DNA of 17,348 nucleotides from Candidatus Hydrogenedentota bacterium (GTDB lineage Bacteria > Hydrogenedentota > Hydrogenedentia > Hydrogenedentales > SLHB01): assembly GCA_029974275.1 (NCBI GenBank), contig JARKSN010000052.1, positions 1-17,348 on the forward strand, read 5' to 3'. This document shows positions 200 through 14,633 of the stretch, piece by piece. The position numbers and the translations under genes were made by a program. The notes under the pieces were generated by a model. The model searched no databases. It was not told the DNA's origin and was given only the letters and a program-made list of their open reading frames with translations. Numbering within the stretch: position 1 is the stretch's first letter; each line of letters begins with the position of its first letter.

Positions 200-238
200 G
201 AACGCCACGGAAAACCCATATCGAACGCGAGGTAGCCA

Positions 239-457
239 ATGAATGCGGGAAGCACGTTCACAGCGGTGATCAAACAGGATGGGCCATGGTGGATTGGCTG
301 GATCGAGGAGATTCCCGGTGTCAATTCGCAAGGTGAGACCCGTGAAGAATTGATTGCCAATCTCCGGTCTGCGCTCGAAGAGGCCGTCGATATGAACCGT
401 GAAGAAGCTCTCGCATTCGCTCATGATGGTTATTCCGAGGAACGTATTGCGCTGTGA
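239..457 (+). CDS. hicB: HicB-family antitoxin (short form, no DNA-binding domain)
   Basis: FTAVIKQDGPWWIGWIEEIPGVNSQGETREELIANLRSAL fits the HicB partial RNase H fold (PGxxxQGxTxEE). GAGGT RBS upstream. Confidence 0.88.
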   Translation: MNAGSTFTAVIKQDGPWWIGWIEEIPGVNSQGETREELIANLRSALEEAVDMNREEALAFAHDGYSEERIAL

Positions 458-5036: not shown

Positions 5037-6377
5037 CTACACCAGTCCCTGATCCAACATCGCGTTGGCGACCTTGGAGAAGCCGGCGATATTGGCGCCG
5101 GTGACGTAGTTGCCGGTTTGCTCGTACTCCTCCGAAGCCTTGTACGCTTGCGTATGAATTTCCTTCATGATGTCGCGCAACCGGTTGTCCACTTCCTCGC
5201 GCGTCCATGCGGTATGCTGCGAATTCTGGGCCATTTCCAAGCCCGACACCGCCACGCCGCCGGCATTGGCCGCCTTGCCCGGCGCGTACAGAACCTTGTT
5301 CTTCAGAAAAACCTCGACGCCATCGGGATCGGTCGGCATGTTCGCCCCCTCGCCCACCAGGAAACAGCCGTTCTTCACGAGCGTCTCGGCGTCTTTTCCG
5401 GAGATCTCGTTCTGCGTCGCGCTCGGAAACGCGCAATCGCACTTCACGCCCCACGGCGTCGCGCCTTCCATGTACTTCACGCCCGAAAATTTGTTCGCAT
5501 ACTCGGAAATGCGGCCGCGGCGGACGTTCTTGAGGTCCATGATATAGGCCAGCTTTTCCTCGTCGATGCCTGCGGGATCATGAATGGTGCCGTTCGAATC
5601 GGAAAGCGTGACGGCCTTGCCGCCAAGCTGATTGATCTTTTCGATGGTGTACTGCGCCACGTTGCCGGAACCGCTGACGACGCAGATTTTGCCCGCTATC
5701 GAATCGCCGCGGACCCCCAGCATGTTCTGCGCAAAATACACGCATCCATATCCCGTGGCCTCGGGACGAATCAGCGAACCGCCCCAATTGAGACCCTTAC
5801 CCGTCAACACGCCCGTGAACTCGTTGCGCAAGCGCTTATACTGACCGAACAGGAACCCGATCTCGCGTCCGCCAACGCCAATATCGCCCGCGGGCACGTC
5901 CGTGTCCGCCCCGACATGCTTGGCCAATTCGATCATGAACGATTGACAGAACCGCATCACCTCATTGTTCGATTTTCCCTTCGGATCAAAATCCGAACCG
6001 CCCTTGCCGCCGCCCATGGGAAGAGTCGTCAAGGCATTCTTGAAAATTTGCTCAAACGCCAAAAACTTCAAAATGCCGAGATATACCGTGGGATGAAACC
6101 GCAGTCCGCCCTTGTACGGCCCAATGGCGCTGTTAAACTGAATGCGGAATCCGCGATTGACCTGCACGTTTCCATGATCGTCCAACCACGGAACCCGGAA
6201 CATGATCACGCGCTCCGGCTCCGTCAGCCGCTCCAAAATGCGGTGCTTCTGATATTCCGGATGCCGCTCGAGCACCGGAGCCAGCGAATCGAGCACCTCC
6301 TTCACCGCCTGATGGAATTCAGGCTCCGCAGGATTGCGTTTGACGACCAGACTCATTACGTCAGTGATGTACGACAT
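5037..6377 (-). CDS. gdhA: NADP-specific glutamate dehydrogenase
   Basis: GPYKGGLRFHP, GGGKGGSDFDPK, DVPAGDIG, RPEATGYG, GSGNVA, PGKAANAGGV. Start MSYITDV at 6377 behind a GAGGGAG RBS. Confidence 0.97.
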   Translation of the reverse strand: MSYITDVMSLVVKRNPAEPEFHQAVKEVLDSLAPVLERHPEYQKHRILERLTEPERVIMFRVPWLDDHGNVQVNRGFRIQFNSAIGPYKGGLRFHPTVYLGILKFLAFEQIFKNALTTLPMGGGKGGSDFDPKGKSNNEVMRFCQSFMIELAKHVGADTDVPAGDIGVGGREIGFLFGQYKRLRNEFTGVLTGKGLNWGGSLIRPEATGYGCVYFAQNMLGVRGDSIAGKICVVSGSGNVAQYTIEKINQLGGKAVTLSDSNGTIHDPAGIDEEKLAYIMDLKNVRRGRISEYANKFSGVKYMEGATPWGVKCDCAFPSATQNEISGKDAETLVKNGCFLVGEGANMPTDPDGVEVFLKNKVLYAPGKAANAGGVAVSGLEMAQNSQHTAWTREEVDNRLRDIMKEIHTQAYKASEEYEQTGNYVTGANIAGFSKVANAMLDQGLV

Positions 6378-6455
6378 GCAAGACTCCCTCATCAGTTTCG
6401 GGGATTGCCCCGGAATCCCGGCGCGCGCCCCAGTTTCCCTGCCGACTCACGCAAG

Positions 6456-6767: not shown

Positions 6768-7787
6768 ATGGATATCAAAACACAGCGAAAAATGGTGAGC
6801 ATTCTGCGCGTGTTGCGCAGCGACGAAAGTCCCATGGGAAGCGAACGGATAGCGCACGACCTCGAACTTGCCGGCGCGCCGCTCACCGAACGCACCATCC
6901 GGAATTACCTGGCCTTAGCCGATGCCCTCGGTTGGACGGAAAATCTTGGGCGGCGCGGACGCCGCATCACCAGCGCAGGCATTCGCGAGGTCGAGCGCGC
7001 GCTCGTCATGGACAAGGTAGGGTTCATCGCGGCGCGCGTTGAAGAACTCGCCTATCAAATGGATTTCGATCCGCACACCCGCAAGGGCAAGGTCATCCTG
7101 AACATCACGACCTTCCCCCTGGCGGACGTTCGGGCCGCGTTCGCCGCCATGGACGAGGTCTTTCGCGCCGGATTGGGCATGGGACATCTGTGCGCGCTCG
7201 CGTTTCCGGGCGAACGCCTTGGCGGCATTCAAACGCCCAAAGGGTGCTGCGCGATCGGAACCGTATGCAGCGTCACGATCAACGGTCTCCTGTTGCGCGC
7301 CCGAATCGCTGCCACATCCCGCTTCGGCGGACTGCTCGAGCTAGAAAAGCGGCAGCCCAAACGTTTCGTCCAAATCATCACCTACGATGGCACAACCCTT
7401 GATCCCCTCGAAATATTCATCCGGGGCCACATGACCAGCGTTGCCCAGACCGCCCAGACCGGATCCGGCTTTGTCGGCGCCAGTTTCCGCGAGATCCCCA
7501 TGTCATGCCTTGGAGAGGCTCGCCGACTTATCAGCGAAGCCGATCGCGTCGGCCTTGGCGGCGTGCTGGTCGTGGGCAACCCCGGCCAGCCCCTGCTCGA
7601 TGTTCCCGTCACCCAAGGACGCGTGGGCCTCATCGTGTTCGGAGGCCTCAACCCAATCGCCGCCGTCGTGGAGACCGGCATCGCGGTCACCAGCACCGCC
7701 ATGTGCGCCTTGTGCGACTATCCCAGCCTTGTCGACGTCGCCCAACTCCCCAATCTCTTTTCCGCCAAAGGCATATCCGTGCGATAG
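6768..7787 (+). CDS. nrpR: NrpR-family (DUF128) nitrogen transcriptional repressor with a single regulatory domain
   Basis: N-terminal wHTH (ILRVL..PMGSERIA..LTERTIRNYL..GRRIT) plus GTVCSVTING, YDGTTLDPLEIFI and GGLNPIAA motifs; divergent from gdhA. Confidence 0.88.
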   Translation: MDIKTQRKMVSILRVLRSDESPMGSERIAHDLELAGAPLTERTIRNYLALADALGWTENLGRRGRRITSAGIREVERALVMDKVGFIAARVEELAYQMDFDPHTRKGKVILNITTFPLADVRAAFAAMDEVFRAGLGMGHLCALAFPGERLGGIQTPKGCCAIGTVCSVTINGLLLRARIAATSRFGGLLELEKRQPKRFVQIITYDGTTLDPLEIFIRGHMTSVAQTAQTGSGFVGASFREIPMSCLGEARRLISEADRVGLGGVLVVGNPGQPLLDVPVTQGRVGLIVFGGLNPIAAVVETGIAVTSTAMCALCDYPSLVDVAQLPNLFSAKGISVR

Positions 7788-7819
7788 ACGTCCGGCGCTT
7801 TGGAGAAGGCGCGGTTGAC

Positions 7820-9223
7820 TTACGTGCGGTGCTCGCTAAAAAGACGACGCAACAGATCGGGATCGTTGGCCACTCGGAGCGCCGTCTCCATCTCGATTTC
7901 ACCGCGCTGGCACAGATTTCTCAAACTGTGTTCCAGGGTGTAAGCGCCAGGAATCGCCGCAAACAGATTGGGGATATGATCCAGCTGGCCGGCGCGGAGG
8001 GCGTGGCGGATGGCGTCGTTGGGAATCAACGCCTCGCTCGCCAACGCGTGGCCCGCGCCGTCCCGCGTCGGCACGAGCCGCTGCGTGATGATGCCCCGAA
8101 TCCCGGAAGCCAAAATGTGCAGCGCCACGGCGCGTTGCTCGCGCGGATATGTCAAAACAAGACGGTGAAGAGCCTCGACGGCGTTTGAGACGGGCATCGT
8201 GACCAGCATCAAACAGTTCATCTCAGACGCATGCACGACGAGCTCCAGGGCCCCCGGCTCGTTCAGGCCGTCGAGTGCGATGACATCGGGATCTTGCCGG
8301 AAAGCCTGACGCATCCCTTCCAGAAAAGAGGGCGCATCGACGCCCAATTCCCGCTGCTTGATGACACTGCGCCGAGTCTGGTGAGCAATCAAGATCGGGT
8401 CTTCCAGAGTGACGATGATCTTTCTGAACTCGTCGTTGACAACGCCGATCATTGCCGCCAAGGTCGTGCTCTTGCCGCTACGGGCAGGGCCCGTGACCAG
8501 GACCAACCCGTTGGCGCAGCGGGCAAGATTGCGCACGCCGGGGGGGAGTCCCAACTCCTCAATCGCGGGAACATACTGCTCGATCCGCCGAAAGGCCGCT
8601 TCGATCTGGCCGCGTTGATAATGCACGTGCGCACGCCAAGCGCCCAATTCTGGAACGGCAAAGGGGAGATCGAGGCTTCGAGCCCGTGAGAGGTCCTTGC
8701 GCTGACGTTCGTTGAGGATGCCCAACAACATGGCTTCAAGCTGCAACCCGTCGAGAGGGGTTTCGCCTATGGGGAACAATTCGCGGCGAACGCGGCCCAT
8801 GGGGGGAGCCCCGCCGCACAGATGCAGCACAGTCGCGTCCAGCTCGATCGCTTTTTGGAGAAGGGGCGCCACATCAATAGCCATGACAAATTGCGCCAAA
8901 GCGTCTGCCGCATCGACACGATCAAATTCAATGGCGTATTCGAAACCTTCGCCCGGTTGCTCGGGGCCTATGATTCGGACCAAGGCGCCCCGCGCTCGAA
9001 TCTCGATAGGAGGGCTTGGCAGCGAAATCTTGGCCTGAAGATGTGCATGAATGGGGAGGGAGACGGGGGAGCGGAAGCTGACCCCGCCGCACGATAGCGA
9101 GGTTGTCAGGGCCTGCACGGAACGTCCCGGATCGCCGGAAAAACCGACCGACTCGAATTCAAACGGCAACTCGACGCAAACGCGTCGGAAGCGGCGTCTT
9201 TCTCTCGGCACATCGGCTGGCAT
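7820..9223 (-). CDS. PilZ domain fused to a PilT/PilU-family ATPase with degenerate catalytic motifs
   Basis: N-terminal ERRRFRR...SLSCGG...RGALVR (PilZ); then LHLCGGAPP, Walker A GPARSGKST, TLEDPI, QRELG, RQDPDVI and AIRHALR (AIRNLIRE-like). AAGGAGG RBS. Confidence 0.85.
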   Translation of the reverse strand: MPADVPRERRRFRRVCVELPFEFESVGFSGDPGRSVQALTTSLSCGGVSFRSPVSLPIHAHLQAKISLPSPPIEIRARGALVRIIGPEQPGEGFEYAIEFDRVDAADALAQFVMAIDVAPLLQKAIELDATVLHLCGGAPPMGRVRRELFPIGETPLDGLQLEAMLLGILNERQRKDLSRARSLDLPFAVPELGAWRAHVHYQRGQIEAAFRRIEQYVPAIEELGLPPGVRNLARCANGLVLVTGPARSGKSTTLAAMIGVVNDEFRKIIVTLEDPILIAHQTRRSVIKQRELGVDAPSFLEGMRQAFRQDPDVIALDGLNEPGALELVVHASEMNCLMLVTMPVSNAVEALHRLVLTYPREQRAVALHILASGIRGIITQRLVPTRDGAGHALASEALIPNDAIRHALRAGQLDHIPNLFAAIPGAYTLEHSLRNLCQRGEIEMETALRVANDPDLLRRLFSEHRT

Positions 9224-9394
9224 GCATTCTCCTCCTTATCCGTTCGCGCGCACGTTCTAAAAACTCCGCGTTGAAGCAATTTCATTGCAGGAAGCGATAG
9301 AACCCCGCTCCGGAGTGTAGCACTGCCTCATTGAAAACGGCAACCCGCAGGCAGTCGTCGCCACATTTTCGAGGATGAATCGCGATGCGAGGGC

Positions 9395-9423
9395 TTGCCT
9401 GATGACGAAGGTTTGGATATACT
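9395..9423 (+). promoter_or_regulatory. Putative sigma70 promoter of the lytic transglycosylase gene
   Basis: TTGCCT-N17-TATACT, ending 6 nt before ATG 9430. Confidence 0.55.
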
Positions 9424-9429
9424 CTTGAC

Positions 9430-10434
9430 ATGTGGATATCGGGGAGAGAACCTCGGGTGTCAGGGCGGCATTGCAAGAACGCGCGGATCTGGGGTTTTGC
9501 GCTGCTCTGGGCGTTGGCGGCGTCCTGGTGCGTGGCCATGGACGGCCGTGCCACCTCTGGCATGGAGCCGGAATCCCGGGAGCAGGCGCTGCAGCAGCGA
9601 CGCGTCCGTCTCGAACAGGAAAATCGCGAGCGAGCCAAAGCCTACGCGAACGCGCGCCCCGAACAGCGCATCCGCATTTTCAAGGACAAGAACGGCGTTC
9701 CCACCTTTACGGACAACCCGTCAAAGTATCTGCGCAAATCCCGCGAATACGTCGAGATCGCGATCCATTACGACCCCATCGTTGTGCCGAATCGCCTGAA
9801 AACGCTTAGCGAACGCGACAAGATTTCGGCGGGCAATCTTTCGACGCTGGTGCAACATTATGCTCGGATGTATTCGCTGGACGAGCATTTGGTCTACGCT
9901 ATCATCAAAGTGGAAAGCAACTTCGTGTGTGACGCCGTTTCACGGGCAGGCGCGCGCGGTCTGATGCAGTTGATGCCGGGCACGGCGGCGGAAATGGGAG
10001 TGGCGGACATCTATGATCCCGCACAGAACATCGCCGGCGGCACGCAGTACATTGCCAAAATGCTGAATTATTTCAACAACGACATGAAGCTTTCCCTCGC
10101 GGCCTACAACTCGGGTCCGGAGACCGTCAAAAAATACGGCGGCATACCCCCGATTCGAGAAACGCAGGAATACGTCAAGCGCGTGCTGCACTACCAGAAA
10201 GAATACAAAACGAAAGGAGTGGTCGGCATTGACGTGACGCCCGGCAAAGCGCGAATCACGATCGCGTCCAAGCCCGCTCCGGTCAAAAAATACTTCACCG
10301 TGGTGTTCAAAAGCCAGCTTACGCAGTATGCGGATCGTGTGGTTGAGGAAGACGTCTACTATTACCTCAACTTCGAAGGCCGGACTGCGCGCGTGCCCAA
10401 GGATGTGGTTCAGGAAATCATCGCTCCAAGCTGA
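9430..10434 (+). CDS. Lytic transglycosylase (SLT domain) with N-terminal membrane/signal segment and DUF4124-like module
   Basis: Catalytic IKVESNF, GARGLMQLMP, AAYNSG, ETQEYV; FKDKNGVPTFTDNP module. Start uncertain. Confidence 0.9.
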   Translation: MWISGREPRVSGRHCKNARIWGFALLWALAASWCVAMDGRATSGMEPESREQALQQRRVRLEQENRERAKAYANARPEQRIRIFKDKNGVPTFTDNPSKYLRKSREYVEIAIHYDPIVVPNRLKTLSERDKISAGNLSTLVQHYARMYSLDEHLVYAIIKVESNFVCDAVSRAGARGLMQLMPGTAAEMGVADIYDPAQNIAGGTQYIAKMLNYFNNDMKLSLAAYNSGPETVKKYGGIPPIRETQEYVKRVLHYQKEYKTKGVVGIDVTPGKARITIASKPAPVKKYFTVVFKSQLTQYADRVVEEDVYYYLNFEGRTARVPKDVVQEIIAPS

Positions 10435-10454
10435 TCGCGGCCGACGCGCCGACG

Positions 10455-12188
10455 TCAACGCAACGGAAGCGAGATGGTTTGGTTGCGAGCGAGCGAGACG
10501 GTCTTCTGCGTGGTCTGATGAACGAAGATCACTTCGGCGGGCCGGTTGCGGATTTCGGCGATGATCCACCCCTGTTCGATGGCGTCTCCCGCTGCGGCGA
10601 GAATTTGCTTGGGCCGCGCCTCTGGGTGCACGGTCACGGTGAGAGAGACGCGATCGCCCACTCTTCCGGCATAATGCACCACAATCTGTGGCAGCGCCTC
10701 GTCCGTTCGAGCGCTTGAGACGGGACCCGCCGCTATGGGAACCGGCAAGGCTTCGGCGGGAGACTTCAATGGCGGCATGGGCGGCGGCGTCCGAACCCGT
10801 CCTTGTTCGCGCGTTTTCTCGGCGGCGTCGGGAATGGCGGTGAGACGGACCGGAAGAGATGCCTCGAATGCCGCGAATTCCCGCCCGGATGCGTGGGTGA
10901 ATGCCAGCCGCACCCGCACCGGATTCAATCCATTCTCCAGCAACCGGCGCGCATCGAACACGAGACGCTGCGTGGCATGAGGCGCAATCACGATCGAGGA
11001 CAATGGGGCGATCGCCGCGTTTCCAGCGGAAATCCAACAGGCCGAGGGGTCTGAGACCCGTATGAAGTCTTGCGAGTCGAGTTCGGACACCCAAACCTGT
11101 GCGTCGATCATTCCGGGAGCGCCGCGCTCGTTGGCAGTCGCCGTGCGCAGCGTGATGGCGCGACGGTCGTTGTTCAGGATTTCCACGTAGATGACGCCGC
11201 TCGCGGGATCGCGCAGCGAGGCGGCGATTTCGGGATCGTTTGGGGAAGCGGGCAACAGCATAGGGACGAGCGGGATGGCGAAAATCGCCGCGACCCAGGC
11301 GGTCAAGACCGCCGCGCCGATAAGGGTCGTGTGCACGACGTCCTGCATGGATCGGATGCGCTGTGCACCGACAAGAGCAATCGAGATGCCTCCTGCACAA
11401 TAGACGATGGGCCCCAGTCCAATCAGCCGCCACAACGCTGCATGGTCCTGCATCGAGGGGGCGTGCAATACGGCCGCACCCACAGGCAGACAACTCATCC
11501 AAGCGAGGGTCGCTCCCAACAGCAGCAGTCCCCAACCCATATACCGCGCGGCGGGATAGCGCAACGCCGCCAGCGCCAACAAGGGGAGCGACGCATACGG
11601 CAAACCAAGGATCGAAAGAAGCGGGGCGGTTGCGGTCGAGTCCGGCGCGAATGGATCGACAAACAGACGCGGCAGGGCCAGAAGGGAAAAGAGACCGTGC
11701 GAGGGAAGCGGCCAAGGCAGCAAGACGCTGGCGGCCATCGCCGCTGGCATGGCGATCAGAACCCACGCGATGAAGGTGCTTGCAGAATAGACCGCCTCTG
11801 AAAAGTCCTCCCCATAGGCATCCAAGGGCTTGTCCACAAAACCGCCCACAGCCTCGGGAAATTCGGCCTGAACGAGCAAACGCCGCGAAGCGGCTTCGTC
11901 GTGCAGCTGCGCAATCTGCGCGGCGATGCGTCGGCTCGCTTCGTTTGCTTTGCCTGCGGTCATTCGTCCAGTCGAGAGGAGACGGCTCAACTCAAGCTGT
12001 GCATTGCCTTCCCGGCGGATCTGGCGTTCGATTGTGCGCAACCGGTCGCACTGAAGGCCGCGCAGGCTCTTCAGGACGGATTGTGCGGCGCGCAGGTGAC
12101 GCCGCCCGGCGCGCGTCTCTCGGAGGGAAGCCGCTTTTTGGCGGTACGACAGCGCCATTTGGAACAGCCGTTTGTCATCGCTGGACAT
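10455..12188 (-). CDS. Uncharacterised multi-pass membrane protein
   Basis: 577-aa ORF: helical basic N-terminus, about five hydrophobic segments, a beta-rich domain, a Pro/Ala linker and a small C-terminal beta domain. Co-directional with pyrG, 52 nt downstream. Confidence 0.75.
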   Translation of the reverse strand: MSSDDKRLFQMALSYRQKAASLRETRAGRRHLRAAQSVLKSLRGLQCDRLRTIERQIRREGNAQLELSRLLSTGRMTAGKANEASRRIAAQIAQLHDEAASRRLLVQAEFPEAVGGFVDKPLDAYGEDFSEAVYSASTFIAWVLIAMPAAMAASVLLPWPLPSHGLFSLLALPRLFVDPFAPDSTATAPLLSILGLPYASLPLLALAALRYPAARYMGWGLLLLGATLAWMSCLPVGAAVLHAPSMQDHAALWRLIGLGPIVYCAGGISIALVGAQRIRSMQDVVHTTLIGAAVLTAWVAAIFAIPLVPMLLPASPNDPEIAASLRDPASGVIYVEILNNDRRAITLRTATANERGAPGMIDAQVWVSELDSQDFIRVSDPSACWISAGNAAIAPLSSIVIAPHATQRLVFDARRLLENGLNPVRVRLAFTHASGREFAAFEASLPVRLTAIPDAAEKTREQGRVRTPPPMPPLKSPAEALPVPIAAGPVSSARTDEALPQIVVHYAGRVGDRVSLTVTVHPEARPKQILAAAGDAIEQGWIIAEIRNRPAEVIFVHQTTQKTVSLARNQTISLPLR

Positions 12189-12240: not shown

Positions 12241-13878
12241 TCAAGGTTTACGCGCGGACTGTTGGAGCGCCAAGGCCGTTTTAACGAAATCCCGGAAAAG
12301 GGGCTGCGGTCTGAGCGGCGTGCTCTTGAACTCCGGATGAAACTGGGAGGCGCAGAACCAAGGATGGTCGCGTAGCTCGATCACTTCCACCAACTCATGG
12401 TCCGTGCGCGGATTGATGCCGCTGAACACGACCCCCGCCTCTGCCTCGAAACGTTCACGATACAGGTTGTTGAATTCGTACCTGTGCCGATGTCGCTCTT
12501 CAATGACGTCTGCGTCGTATGCCGCGCGGGCTTTTGTGCCCGGCTGCAATTCGCAACGGTATGCCCCCAGACGCATCGTGCCTCCCATGTCCCGAATGCC
12601 GCGCTGCTCCGACAACAAGGAAATCACGGGGTCGGGCGTTTCGGGGTTGAATTCGGTCGAATTCGCATCCGAAAGCCCCAACGTGTTGCGTGCCATTTCG
12701 ATCATGGCGATTTGCATGCCCAGGCAAATGCCCAAGAAAGGCTTTCCCGTGACGCGAACGTAGTTGACGGCTTTGATTTTGCCCTCGATGCCGCGAGATC
12801 CGAAGCCGGGACCGATCAGAACGCCGTCGTAGGACTTGAGATATTCCTCGGGATCAACGCCGTTCTCGAACTGCTCGGAATCGACCCACTCGACGCGCAC
12901 CTTGCAGTTGTTGGCGATGCCAGCGTGTACAAAAGCCTCGTTGATGCTCTTGTAGGCGTCGTCGTGACCCGTATACTTGCCCACCGCCGCGATGCGAAGC
13001 GTATGCGCGGGAGATTTCAAGCGCTCAACGATACGAGTCCATTCCGTCAGATCGCTCTCGGGAGCGTCGATGTCGAGCGAACGCAACACGGTGTCGTCGA
13101 GTTTCTGCTTTTTGAGACTGAGCGGAATCGCATACAGCGGGGAAACGTCGGGCGCGCCGATGATGCCGTCCGGCGTGACGTTGCAGAACATGGCGATCTT
13201 GCGCGCCTGATCCTCGCCGAGTTCGTGCGACCCGGTGCGACACACGACGACCTGCGGCTGCATGCCGATGTCGCGCAGGGCGCGGACGCTGTGCTGCGTC
13301 GGCTTGGTCTTGAGTTCGCCCGCCGCTTCGATGAACGGCAGCAGCGTGACGTGTATATTGCAACAAGGCGCGGGCGCGACATCCAACTGAAACTGCCGGA
13401 TGGCCTCGAGGAAGGGCAAGCTCTCAATGTCGCCGACCGTGCCGCCGATCTCGATAATGGCCACGTCAACCTCGTCCTCCGGCTCCGCGGTCAACATGCG
13501 GATGCGCAGCTTGATCTCGTCCGTGATGTGCGGGATCACCTGCACTGTTTTGCCGAGATACTCGCCGCGGCGTTCCTTCTCAATGACCGCGTGGTAGACG
13601 CTGCCCGAAGTGATGTTGCTCTTTTTGGAAAGGCGCGAATGGGTGAAACGCTGGTAATGCCCGAGATCGAGGTCGGTCTCCGCGCCATCGTCGGTGACGA
13701 AGACCTCGCCGTGCTCGTAGGGATTCATCGTGCCGGGATCGACGTTGATATAGGGGTCGAGCTTCATCATGGCCACTTTCAGGCCGCGCGCTTCGAGCAA
13801 CAGCCCAAGACTCGCCGCCAGCACCCCCTTGCCAACGCTGGACACCACGCCTCCGGTTACAAACACATACCTCGCCAT
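12241..13878 (-). CDS. pyrG: CTP synthase
   Basis: MARYVFVTGGVVSSVGKG, KLDPYINVDPGTM, GGTVGDIES, KTKPTQHS, GICLGMQ, RHRHRYE, QFHPEF. True start is 13878, overlapping the kdsB stop (TAATG). Confidence 0.98.
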   Translation of the reverse strand: MARYVFVTGGVVSSVGKGVLAASLGLLLEARGLKVAMMKLDPYINVDPGTMNPYEHGEVFVTDDGAETDLDLGHYQRFTHSRLSKKSNITSGSVYHAVIEKERRGEYLGKTVQVIPHITDEIKLRIRMLTAEPEDEVDVAIIEIGGTVGDIESLPFLEAIRQFQLDVAPAPCCNIHVTLLPFIEAAGELKTKPTQHSVRALRDIGMQPQVVVCRTGSHELGEDQARKIAMFCNVTPDGIIGAPDVSPLYAIPLSLKKQKLDDTVLRSLDIDAPESDLTEWTRIVERLKSPAHTLRIAAVGKYTGHDDAYKSINEAFVHAGIANNCKVRVEWVDSEQFENGVDPEEYLKSYDGVLIGPGFGSRGIEGKIKAVNYVRVTGKPFLGICLGMQIAMIEMARNTLGLSDANSTEFNPETPDPVISLLSEQRGIRDMGGTMRLGAYRCELQPGTKARAAYDADVIEERHRHRYEFNNLYRERFEAEAGVVFSGINPRTDHELVEVIELRDHPWFCASQFHPEFKSTPLRPQPLFRDFVKTALALQQSARKP

Positions 13879-14633
13879 TATCTCGCTCCTCGTAGGCTTT
13901 CCGCGATGAGTTTCGCCACGCGATCCAGGTCTTCCGGCGTGTCGACGCCGATGCTTTGGTAGTCCGTATCCACGACAACAATGGCGTGGCCGTGCTCCAA
14001 TGCGCGCAATTGCTCGAGTTTCTCCAGTTCTTCCAACGGCGTCACCGGCATGGCGGCGTATGCCAAGAGAAACGCGCGCCGGTAGGCATACAACCCGATA
14101 TGTTGCCAGTGGCAGGGCAACGCCGGCTGGCCATCGCGCACGTGAGGAATGGGACACCGCGAAAAATACAATGCCCGTCCGTTCAGCCCGCACACGACCT
14201 TGACGACGTTCGGGTTATCGATGTCTTCTGGATTCGTGATGCGGCGCCGCGCCGTGGCGATGGAAACGTCAGGGTCTTCCAGCAACGGCTGAATGGCGGC
14301 GTCGATGGTATGGGGATCGATGAGCGGCTCATCGCCCTGCACATTCACCACAATAGCCGCATCCGTTTGCCGCGCCACCTCCGCGATCCGGTCCGTGCCG
14401 CTCGGATGATCCGGGCGCGTCATTACGGAGGGAATGCCGAGCGGCTCCAACGCGTCGCGCACCCGGACATCGTCCGTCGCGATCACAACGTCCGAAACAA
14501 GTTTCGATTTGCGAGCTTGGTCATAGACATGCGCCACGAGCGGACGACCCGCTATGGGGGCAATCACTTTGCCGGGAAAACGAGACGAGCCGTAACGAGC
14601 TGGGATAACGGCCATAATTTTCGGGAGTTCCAT
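13878..14633 (-). CDS. kdsB: 3-deoxy-manno-octulosonate cytidylyltransferase
   Basis: IPARYGSSRFPGK, SGTDRIAEV, VNVQGDEP, ALYFSR, HIGLYAY, EKLEQLRALE, GVDTPED. Confidence 0.96.
   Translation of the reverse strand: MELPKIMAVIPARYGSSRFPGKVIAPIAGRPLVAHVYDQARKSKLVSDVVIATDDVRVRDALEPLGIPSVMTRPDHPSGTDRIAEVARQTDAAIVVNVQGDEPLIDPHTIDAAIQPLLEDPDVSIATARRRITNPEDIDNPNVVKVVCGLNGRALYFSRCPIPHVRDGQPALPCHWQHIGLYAYRRAFLLAYAAMPVTPLEELEKLEQLRALEHGHAIVVVDTDYQSIGVDTPEDLDRVAKLIAESLRGAR

Follow-up and report, generated by a model that had tools for sequence, protein, structure and literature searches.

A gene on the reverse strand of a 17,348-nucleotide stretch of Candidatus Hydrogenedentota DNA (contig JARKSN010000052.1 of assembly GCA_029974275.1; the whole stretch is referred to as the window) encodes a PilZ domain joined to a complete PilT fold whose ATPase site has lost several catalytic residues. 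Judged from its sequence, the balance tips towards a PilT paralogue that senses c-di-GMP (cyclic dimeric guanosine monophosphate), binds nucleotide, is deficient in its hydrolysis and regulates type IV pili instead of serving as a motor. The gene probably represents a conserved, selected paralogue without motor function and not strain-specific decay. The losses recur in a well-supported clade of PilZ-PilT proteins and are absent from all other PilT paralogues of the same genome.

Architecture and motifs of the PilZ-PilT fusion

The open reading frame (ORF) is uninterrupted over 467 codons and is preceded by AGGAGG 7 nt from the ATG, in agreement with the intact frame and strong ribosome-binding site noted in the original prediction. 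Its domains and motifs are listed in Table 1. The NCBIfam model of PilT/PilU, TIGR01420, is covered from position 4 to 341 of 343 with a score of 277.2 bits, under the cut-off of 319.1. Aquifex PilT (2ewv) is the best sequence match in PDB (E = 7.7e-64), followed by Geobacter PilT4, Thermus PilT2 and Pseudomonas aeruginosa PilU. An AlphaFold2 model of the whole protein, based on 42 aligned fusion proteins, reached a mean predicted local distance difference test (pLDDT) of 91 and a predicted template modelling (TM) score of 0.83. Foldseek superposed it on PilT2, PilT4, PilU and Aquifex PilT with target-normalised TM scores of 0.89-0.92 and root-mean-square deviations of 2.1-2.5 Å over about 350 columns. 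Together with the Pfam matches to PilZ and T2SSE, this confirms the proposed arrangement of a PilZ domain of about 115 amino acids followed by a complete PilT fold.

A separate AlphaFold2 model of the PilZ part (residues 1-119), derived from 7 sequences only, has a pLDDT of 80. It retrieved 18 PDB matches at E <= 0.001 and, among the matches listed, all are PilZ domains. The closest structure is Bacillus subtilis MotI/DgrA (5vx6, E = 4e-6, TMq 0.73), and next come the BcsA PilZ domain, Alg44, PA0012 and MapZ; several of these were solved with c-di-GMP bound. The C-terminal PilZ helix (residues 106-116) continues into the first PilT helix (119-127) with no linker, and the boundary residue D117 is invariant in 42/42 aligned fusions. 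In the model, the PilZ receptor fold is rigidly joined to the PilT fold. No T2SSE_N (MshEN) domain was detected by Pfam at the N-terminus, where PilZ is found instead.

All motif strings quoted in the original prediction (RxxxR, SLSCGG, WRAH, FRRI, GPARSGKST, EDPIL, DVIALDGL, NCLMLVTMP and AIRHALR) do occur in the protein. Substituted residues were placed by residue-by-residue alignment to Aquifex PilT 2ewv, in which L278 faces the canonical Glu, D318-G319 the Gly-Glu pair, C337 the first His and P344 the second. The Walker B region reads Dh4DG-L-N in place of Dh4GE-M-R; Asp318-Gly319 substitute for Gly-Glu, and Asn321 for Arg. This arginine, which follows the Walker B glutamate in GEMRD, is a loss beyond those listed previously. 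The His box reads EMNCLMLVTMP where the canonical sequence is ETGHLVxxTLH. Altogether, the window protein has lost five residues for which a role has been described (E278, E319, R321, H337 and H344), and Walker A, E274, D275, E292 and D313 are kept. Numbering is offset from that of PilT by 115 across the ATPase domain, with Lys251 equal to K136, Gly319 to E204, Asn321 to R206 and Pro344 to H229; the other two lost residues we take to be E163 and H222 of PilT.

The roles of these residues in PilT are described in the literature. ATP binding depends on Walker A, the catalytic glutamate comes from the atypical Walker B (Dh4GE) and magnesium is coordinated by the Asp box; both histidines of the His box are required, and R206 is normally invariant (PMC6762196). 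In P. aeruginosa, E204A and H229A each abolish twitching (PMC6858323).

The substitutions are not assembly errors: DNA contigs of a sequencing run from another study match the window letter for letter over 8132-9450, where the codons of the Asp box, Walker B and His box are located. Short identical contigs over 7813-8096 and 7988-8139, in the 3' part of the gene, are present in two metatranscriptome libraries, each from a different study. This gives a weak hint of transcription, as DNA carry-over is possible in such libraries, and no conclusion can be drawn from the uncovered parts of the gene.

Table 1. Coordinates in the window of the fusion gene, its domains and motifs, and its neighbours
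Feature	Residues	Position	Strand	Remarks
PilZ-PilT fusion ORF		7820..9223	-	467 aa + stop, frame intact
Shine-Dalgarno AGGAGG		9231-9236	-	7 nt upstream of ATG at 9223; read from sequence
PilZ domain	8-113	8885..9202	-	Pfam PF07238, 30.9 bits (cut-off 22.5); beta-barrel, then C-terminal helix
RxxxR motif (R10-R-F-R-R14)	10-14	9182..9196	-	PilZ N-terminal loop
SLSCGG at the (D/N)xSxxG site	42-47	9083..9100	-	S44 and G47 kept; Ser42 at D/N position
PilT body	117-462	7838..8875	-	N-terminal PAS-like domain and ATPase domain
N-domain arginine motifs WRAH, FRRI	196-199, 211-214		-	From alignment
T2SSE	232-386		-	Pfam, 75.6 bits
Walker A GPARSGKST	245-253	8465..8491	-	Canonical GX4GK(S/T); Lys251 kept
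Asp box EDPIL	274-278	8390..8404	-	Canonical EDPIE; Leu278 replaces last Glu; E274, D275 kept
Walker B region DVIALDGLNE	313-322	8258..8287	-	Canonical DVILVGEMRD
His box EMNCLMLVTMPV	334-345	8189..8224	-	Both His replaced: Cys337, Pro344
AIRHALRAG	404-412	7988..8014	-	Partial AIRNLIRE-like helix; AIRHALRA identical at 4/8 positions
SLT lytic transglycosylase gene		9430-10434	+	Divergent from fusion gene
NrpR-like regulator gene		6768-7787	+	Convergent with fusion gene
Glutamate dehydrogenase gene		5037-6392	-	Adjoins NrpR-type regulator gene

Conservation of the losses among relatives

The host genome (4.38 Mb in 342 contigs) contains 7 other PilT-family ORFs above the TIGR01420 cut-off, with scores of 335-472 bits. 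All seven carry the canonical motifs EDP(I/L/V)E, GEMRD and GHL..LH. The motif losses are thus specific to the PilZ-fused paralogue. Two of these canonical PilTs, C249:68388-69401 (L006 1438-2928) and C287:5304-6317 (L007 1411-2931), possess N-terminal extensions of about 140 amino acids with no Pfam domain match; they group together in the tree described below (SH-aLRT, the Shimodaira-Hasegawa-like approximate likelihood ratio test, 99).

Using a profile of 7 fusions as query, 1.84 billion cluster representatives were searched. Among the best 150 matches, at least 35 further full-length PilZ-PilT proteins (clusters at 50% identity) were identified. Both Pfam domains were recovered in 6/6 rescanned homologues, which are 6 of the 47 other fusion rows of our alignment. 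The family is therefore sizeable, with members in Hydrogenedentota and one in a Candidatus Omnitrophota metagenome-assembled genome (MAG), the latter near-identical to one of the canonical fusions. Where sources name the fusions, they use 'twitching motility protein PilT' or 'PilT/PilU family type 4a pilus ATPase'; from the plain PilT label, neither the sensor domain nor the missing catalytic residues can be recognised. Most top matches of a word-index search were fusions of another type, tandem PilT-PilT proteins of about 720-750 amino acids; Polyangiales, Chondromyces, Kiritimatiellaeota and Lentisphaeria are among the named sources. As an analogue with one dead half they had to be rejected, both halves being canonical in 7/7 examined.

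Distribution within the phylum was determined with a 7-sequence profile of the PilZ part. Fusion-size ORFs were found in 10/135 genomes, own genome included, of which 8/54 belong to the family of the window (again including its own genome) and 2/14 to a second family; six further genomes contain short stand-alone PilZ ORFs only. The ten fusion-bearing genomes represent 10 different genera. Since intact ORFs of about 465-470 amino acids with roughly 40% identity persist in the 9 other genera (two of the ORFs are cut off by contig ends), purifying selection is likely to act on the gene. The nearest relatives with available DNA show 38-46% protein identity, a saturated distance, and closely related metagenome proteins exist (the P0022 group). 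With the single protein as query, genome contigs yielded no more than an uninformative match of 32 residues to a Myxococcales MAG.

To estimate relationships between these proteins, an alignment of 64 rows was constructed from 42 fusions (obtained in two protein searches), 8 ORFs of related genomes, 7 own paralogues and 7 other canonical PilTs. An unrooted quick tree was built with IQ-TREE for 62 rows, without L014 (cut short by a contig end) and L012 (wrongly trimmed), from the PilT core with the five motif columns masked. The window protein falls within a clade of 22 PilZ-PilT rows, two of them identical, with SH-aLRT 99. State of the catalytic positions in this clade, in other fusions and in canonical PilTs is given in Table 2.

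Table 2. Retention of ATPase-site residues in rows of the tree (numbering of the window protein)
Residue	Clade of window protein	Other fusions	Canonical PilTs
Both His-box His	0/22	13/26	13/14
First His (337)	2/22	19/26	14/14
Second His (344)	4/22	17/26	13/14
Walker B Glu (319)	6/22	26/26	14/14
Asp at Gly position (318)	10/22	0/26	0/14
Asp-box last Glu (278)	17/22	25/26	14/14
Walker A Lys (251)	21/22	24/26	14/14

Orthologues share the catalytic losses: no member of the clade has both His-box histidines and 6/22 have the Walker B glutamate. This argues against strain-specific decay, which the original prediction had named as an outcome that would overturn it. Other positions are well kept in the clade, namely E274 (22/22), E292 (22/22), E334 (21/22) and R354 (19/22). 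N-domain Arg212 is Arg in 10/22 rows and His in 9/22, and one member, P0139, has lost Walker A entirely. Replacing residues are diverse, being R, Y, F, C or S at 337 and R, A, K, C, G, H or N at 319. Because they differ between lineages in an otherwise conserved protein, relaxed constraint at the catalytic positions is suggested.

Motifs are fully canonical in the immediate fusion outgroups P0153, P0132 and P0133, and the Walker B glutamate is present in every one of the 26 other fusions. In the unrooted quick tree, fusion with PilZ is therefore probably older than the catalytic degeneration, which would concern one lineage only. By sequence, we are dealing with two known domains in a seemingly undescribed architecture, and with one conserved subclade in which catalytic residues appear to have been lost. 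PilZ-PilT fusions find no mention in the open full-text literature searched, which included a survey preprint on PilZ domains and a PilB review of 2024, and domain-architecture databases very likely list the architecture. The same open literature contains no mention of natural catalytically degenerate PilT paralogues.

Proposed function and alternative explanations

With respect to c-di-GMP, the motifs read as stated in the original prediction: RxxxR is intact, and SLSCGG takes the place of (D/N)xSxxG, with the serine and last glycine present and Ser42 at the D/N position. The RxxxR arginines occur in 19/22 clade rows, the remaining 3 being N-terminally incomplete, Ser44 in 20/22 and Gly47 in 22/22. 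At the D/N position, Asn is found in 15 rows, Thr in 4, Ser in 2 (window protein included) and Gly in 1. We regard binding of c-di-GMP by this particular copy as plausible and leaning to likely, though uncertain. Host genome encodes 9 GGDEF ORFs and 10 other PilZ matches, and by gene content it is able to make c-di-GMP and to read it elsewhere.

Comparison with known systems indicates what such a protein might do. The two-domain fold of about 350 residues is common to the window protein and canonical PilT/PilU (Aquifex 2EWV, G. metallireducens PilT4 6OJX/6OK2, T. thermophilus PilT2 5FL3, P. aeruginosa PilU 9N32), as are Walker A, the arginines of the N-domain and a large part of the core, at 32-35% identity. 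Unlike them, it has an N-terminal PilZ, a TIGR01420 score below the cut-off and a location outside a pil operon; the catalytic Glu and the Arg next to it are missing, as are one Glu of the Asp box and both histidines of the His box. ATPases of the MshE/PilB type resemble it as members of the secretion superfamily with an N-terminal c-di-GMP receptor module, which in the window protein is a predicted one (PMC11656802, PMC12943098). Direct c-di-GMP binding is described for these extension ATPases, at their N-terminal domain MshEN/N1D (PMC11656802); this review agrees with the earlier statement that known c-di-GMP inputs act mostly on the extension ATPase. The module is MshEN on an extension ATPase in that case, whereas here PilZ is attached to a catalytically degenerate ATPase of the retraction (PilT) type. 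In Xanthomonas FimX-PilZ-PilB, a PilZ-fold protein is likewise physically coupled to a pilus motor ATPase (PMC8389850; bioRxiv PilZ paper). That PilZ is a separate protein without c-di-GMP motifs and binds the extension ATPase, in contrast to the window protein, where PilZ is covalently fused to PilT and RxxxR and most of the second motif are kept.

MotI/DgrA, the best structural match of the PilZ part, is a c-di-GMP-dependent clutch on the flagellar stator in B. subtilis. The PDB title of 5vx6 names it an inhibitor of motility. Unlike the window protein, it is a stand-alone protein of two PilZ domains that acts on flagella and has no ATPase part. Finally, engineered ATPase-dead PilT of Vibrio cholerae (Walker A/B mutants) is a non-motor partner at the machine, with retraction dependent on PilU (PMC6762196, PMC11656802). 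Those dead PilTs are laboratory point mutants of the primary PilT, whereas the window protein occurs naturally as a conserved paralogue, in which several losses are combined with an additional sensor domain.

In the mechanism we propose, PilZ would lie N-terminally in each subunit, a place taken in extension ATPases by the domain that binds c-di-GMP. The ATPase core has kept the P-loop lysine and gained a classical Walker-B-type aspartate. It is without the Glu that activates water and the Arg beside it, and has also lost one Glu of the Asp box and the two gamma-phosphate histidines. Since the P-loop is kept and catalytic residues are lost, nucleotide would be bound and hydrolysed poorly or not at all, like in a natural 'ATP-trap' mutant. 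The combination of Walker A with an hhhhD-type Walker B that is not followed by Glu resembles classic trap mutants of P-loop ATPases. The fusion protein would form a PilT-like ring; PilT and PilU are described as homohexamers (PMC6821130). In a c-di-GMP-dependent manner, this ring would occupy the motor-docking site of one of the type IV filament machines of the genome, which with about 10 platform (T2SSF) proteins and about 8 PilB/GspE-like ATPases offers many candidate targets.

Two modes of action are conceivable. As a brake, the ring would bar active PilT from the platform and stabilise extended pili, which fits the usual link of high c-di-GMP with adhesion. As an adaptor, the dead ring would recruit another PilT-family ATPase, analogously to V. 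cholerae, where Walker-box-inactive PilT still supports retraction via PilU (PMC11656802). The original prediction suggested that the subunit could dope or block the retraction motor; doping of mixed hexamers is possible, with no precedent found in the literature searched, and a separate ring that competes or serves as an adaptor has at least the same likelihood. Considerably more tentative is a broader proposal, in which PilZ-PilT fusions would constitute undescribed direct c-di-GMP control of the retraction side, and members of the clade of the window protein would be ATP-trap pseudo-motor rings that, when loaded with c-di-GMP, park on the platform and lock pili in an extended, adhesive state.

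If true, a PilT with its own PilZ receptor would provide direct c-di-GMP input to the retraction side, and a conserved hydrolysis-dead form would mean that the pilus motor family has evolved a pseudoenzyme in nature. Such a pseudoenzyme would be a ready tool for studying competition of motors for the platform and for separating contributions of ATP binding from those of ATP hydrolysis.

Several observations weigh against a c-di-GMP-gated, hydrolysis-deficient pilus regulator. Ser42 stands where the PilZ motif needs Asp/Asn, and Alg44 D44A is among motif mutants reported without c-di-GMP binding (PMC12564702). A whole-genome PF07238 scan missed the PilZ domain of the window itself, which reflects the sensitivity of that first look, as direct hmmscan and fold search found it. 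Distribution of fusions in the phylum is patchy (10/135 genomes). An acidic residue at 318 or 319 is present in 19/22 clade rows (Asp318 in the window protein) and might permit residual catalysis, perhaps as a weak base. One or both His-box histidines are also missing from 13/26 Glu-competent fusions, so that loss of the His box alone may leave function intact in the PilZ-PilT family, as far as sequences tell. No pilus genes were found elsewhere in the 17-kb window by Pfam scan of its ORFs. Likewise, Pfam revealed no pilus gene and no universally conserved neighbour among 23 ORFs, taken from 66 that were crudely called around the loci of 7 relatives. The link of the fusion protein to pili thus comes from homology alone.

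Some of these points would also fit a working c-di-GMP-regulated retraction ATPase with a rewired site, in which Asp318 (or Glu/Asp319 in relatives) serves as base and the histidines are substituted. In addition to the acidic residue in 19/22 clade rows (Asp318 itself in 10/22) and to the 13/26 Glu-competent fusions that likewise lack the canonical His pair, the retained Walker A, E274, D275, E292 and D313 speak for it. The site of the window protein has nevertheless lost E278, E319, R321, H337 and H344 all together, and E204A or H229A is each sufficient to abolish twitching of P. aeruginosa (PMC6858323). Free variation at 337 and 319 moreover points to relaxed constraint and not to a new fixed catalytic solution, and P0139 does without Walker A. 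We therefore hold a rewired ATPase to be improbable.

To the same low degree, we expect a protein repurposed outside type IV pili, as a c-di-GMP- and nucleotide-binding scaffold for e.g. envelope or glycan functions. This would explain why pilus genes adjoin it neither in the window nor in 7 relatives, and it is compatible with the only partly retained AIRNLIRE motif, an NAD-dependent epimerase downstream at 2/7 loci, a radical SAM enzyme nearby at 2/7 and the divergent SLT transglycosylase in the window. Neighbours vary between loci, however, and so indicate no alternative pathway; the PilT fold is retained in full, N-terminal domain included (TM about 0.9), and type IV filament machines abound in the genome. 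A decaying pseudogene or assembly artefact, to which the TIGR01420 score (277 bits, below the cut-off of 319) and the lowest T2SSE score of members tested (75.6 bits, compared to 108-148 in 6 homologues scanned) might point, is highly improbable given the intact frame with its ribosome-binding site, identical sequence in contigs of an independent study, a clade of 22 rows whose intact ORFs show losses of this kind and a model pLDDT of 91.

Gene neighbourhood, occurrence and further observations

The fusion gene is likely to form its own transcription unit, because the SLT neighbour is divergent and the NrpR-like neighbour convergent. A promoter and terminator scan of 7600-9500 gave nothing interpretable for this gene. 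Neighbours at the 7 relatives' loci comprise TrpS (2 loci), an epimerase (2), a radical SAM enzyme (2), Rho, RtcB and others.

Parts of the window are contained in 20 sequencing runs from 17 studies, in 3 of which half or more of the sampled words were present. The runs are labelled as wastewater, activated sludge or anaerobic digester metagenomes, with the exception of one biofilm sample; contigs of four of them were aligned to the window. The CTP synthase encoded in the window shares 74-83% identity with its best matches, and among 19 matches with an organism name, 15 come from Candidatus Hydrogenedentota/-es/-ales MAGs.

Elsewhere in the genome, contig C336:54633-60100 harbours a compact cluster that encodes two PilB-like ATPases, one canonical PilT and one PilC-like platform protein. 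Several type IV filament loci exist in this genome, and the cluster is one of them.

NrpR is best known as an archaeal nitrogen repressor. The regulator encoded in the window (NRD1_2 domain, 263 bits, plus winged helix) adjoins the glutamate dehydrogenase gene in a bacterium, and the two may represent a bacterial nitrogen-regulation pair.

Between the SLT gene and pyrG, an ORF of 577 amino acids (10455-12188, reverse strand) has no Pfam or NCBIfam match. It is overlapped by a 608-amino-acid ORF in another frame of the same strand (9940-11766), and the two are competing gene calls. The longest pyrG frame (12241-14193, reverse strand, 650 amino acids, GTG start) extends upstream of the CTP synthase domain by about 105 codons and shares an overlap with kdsB (13878-14633); the true start of pyrG is probably near 13875.

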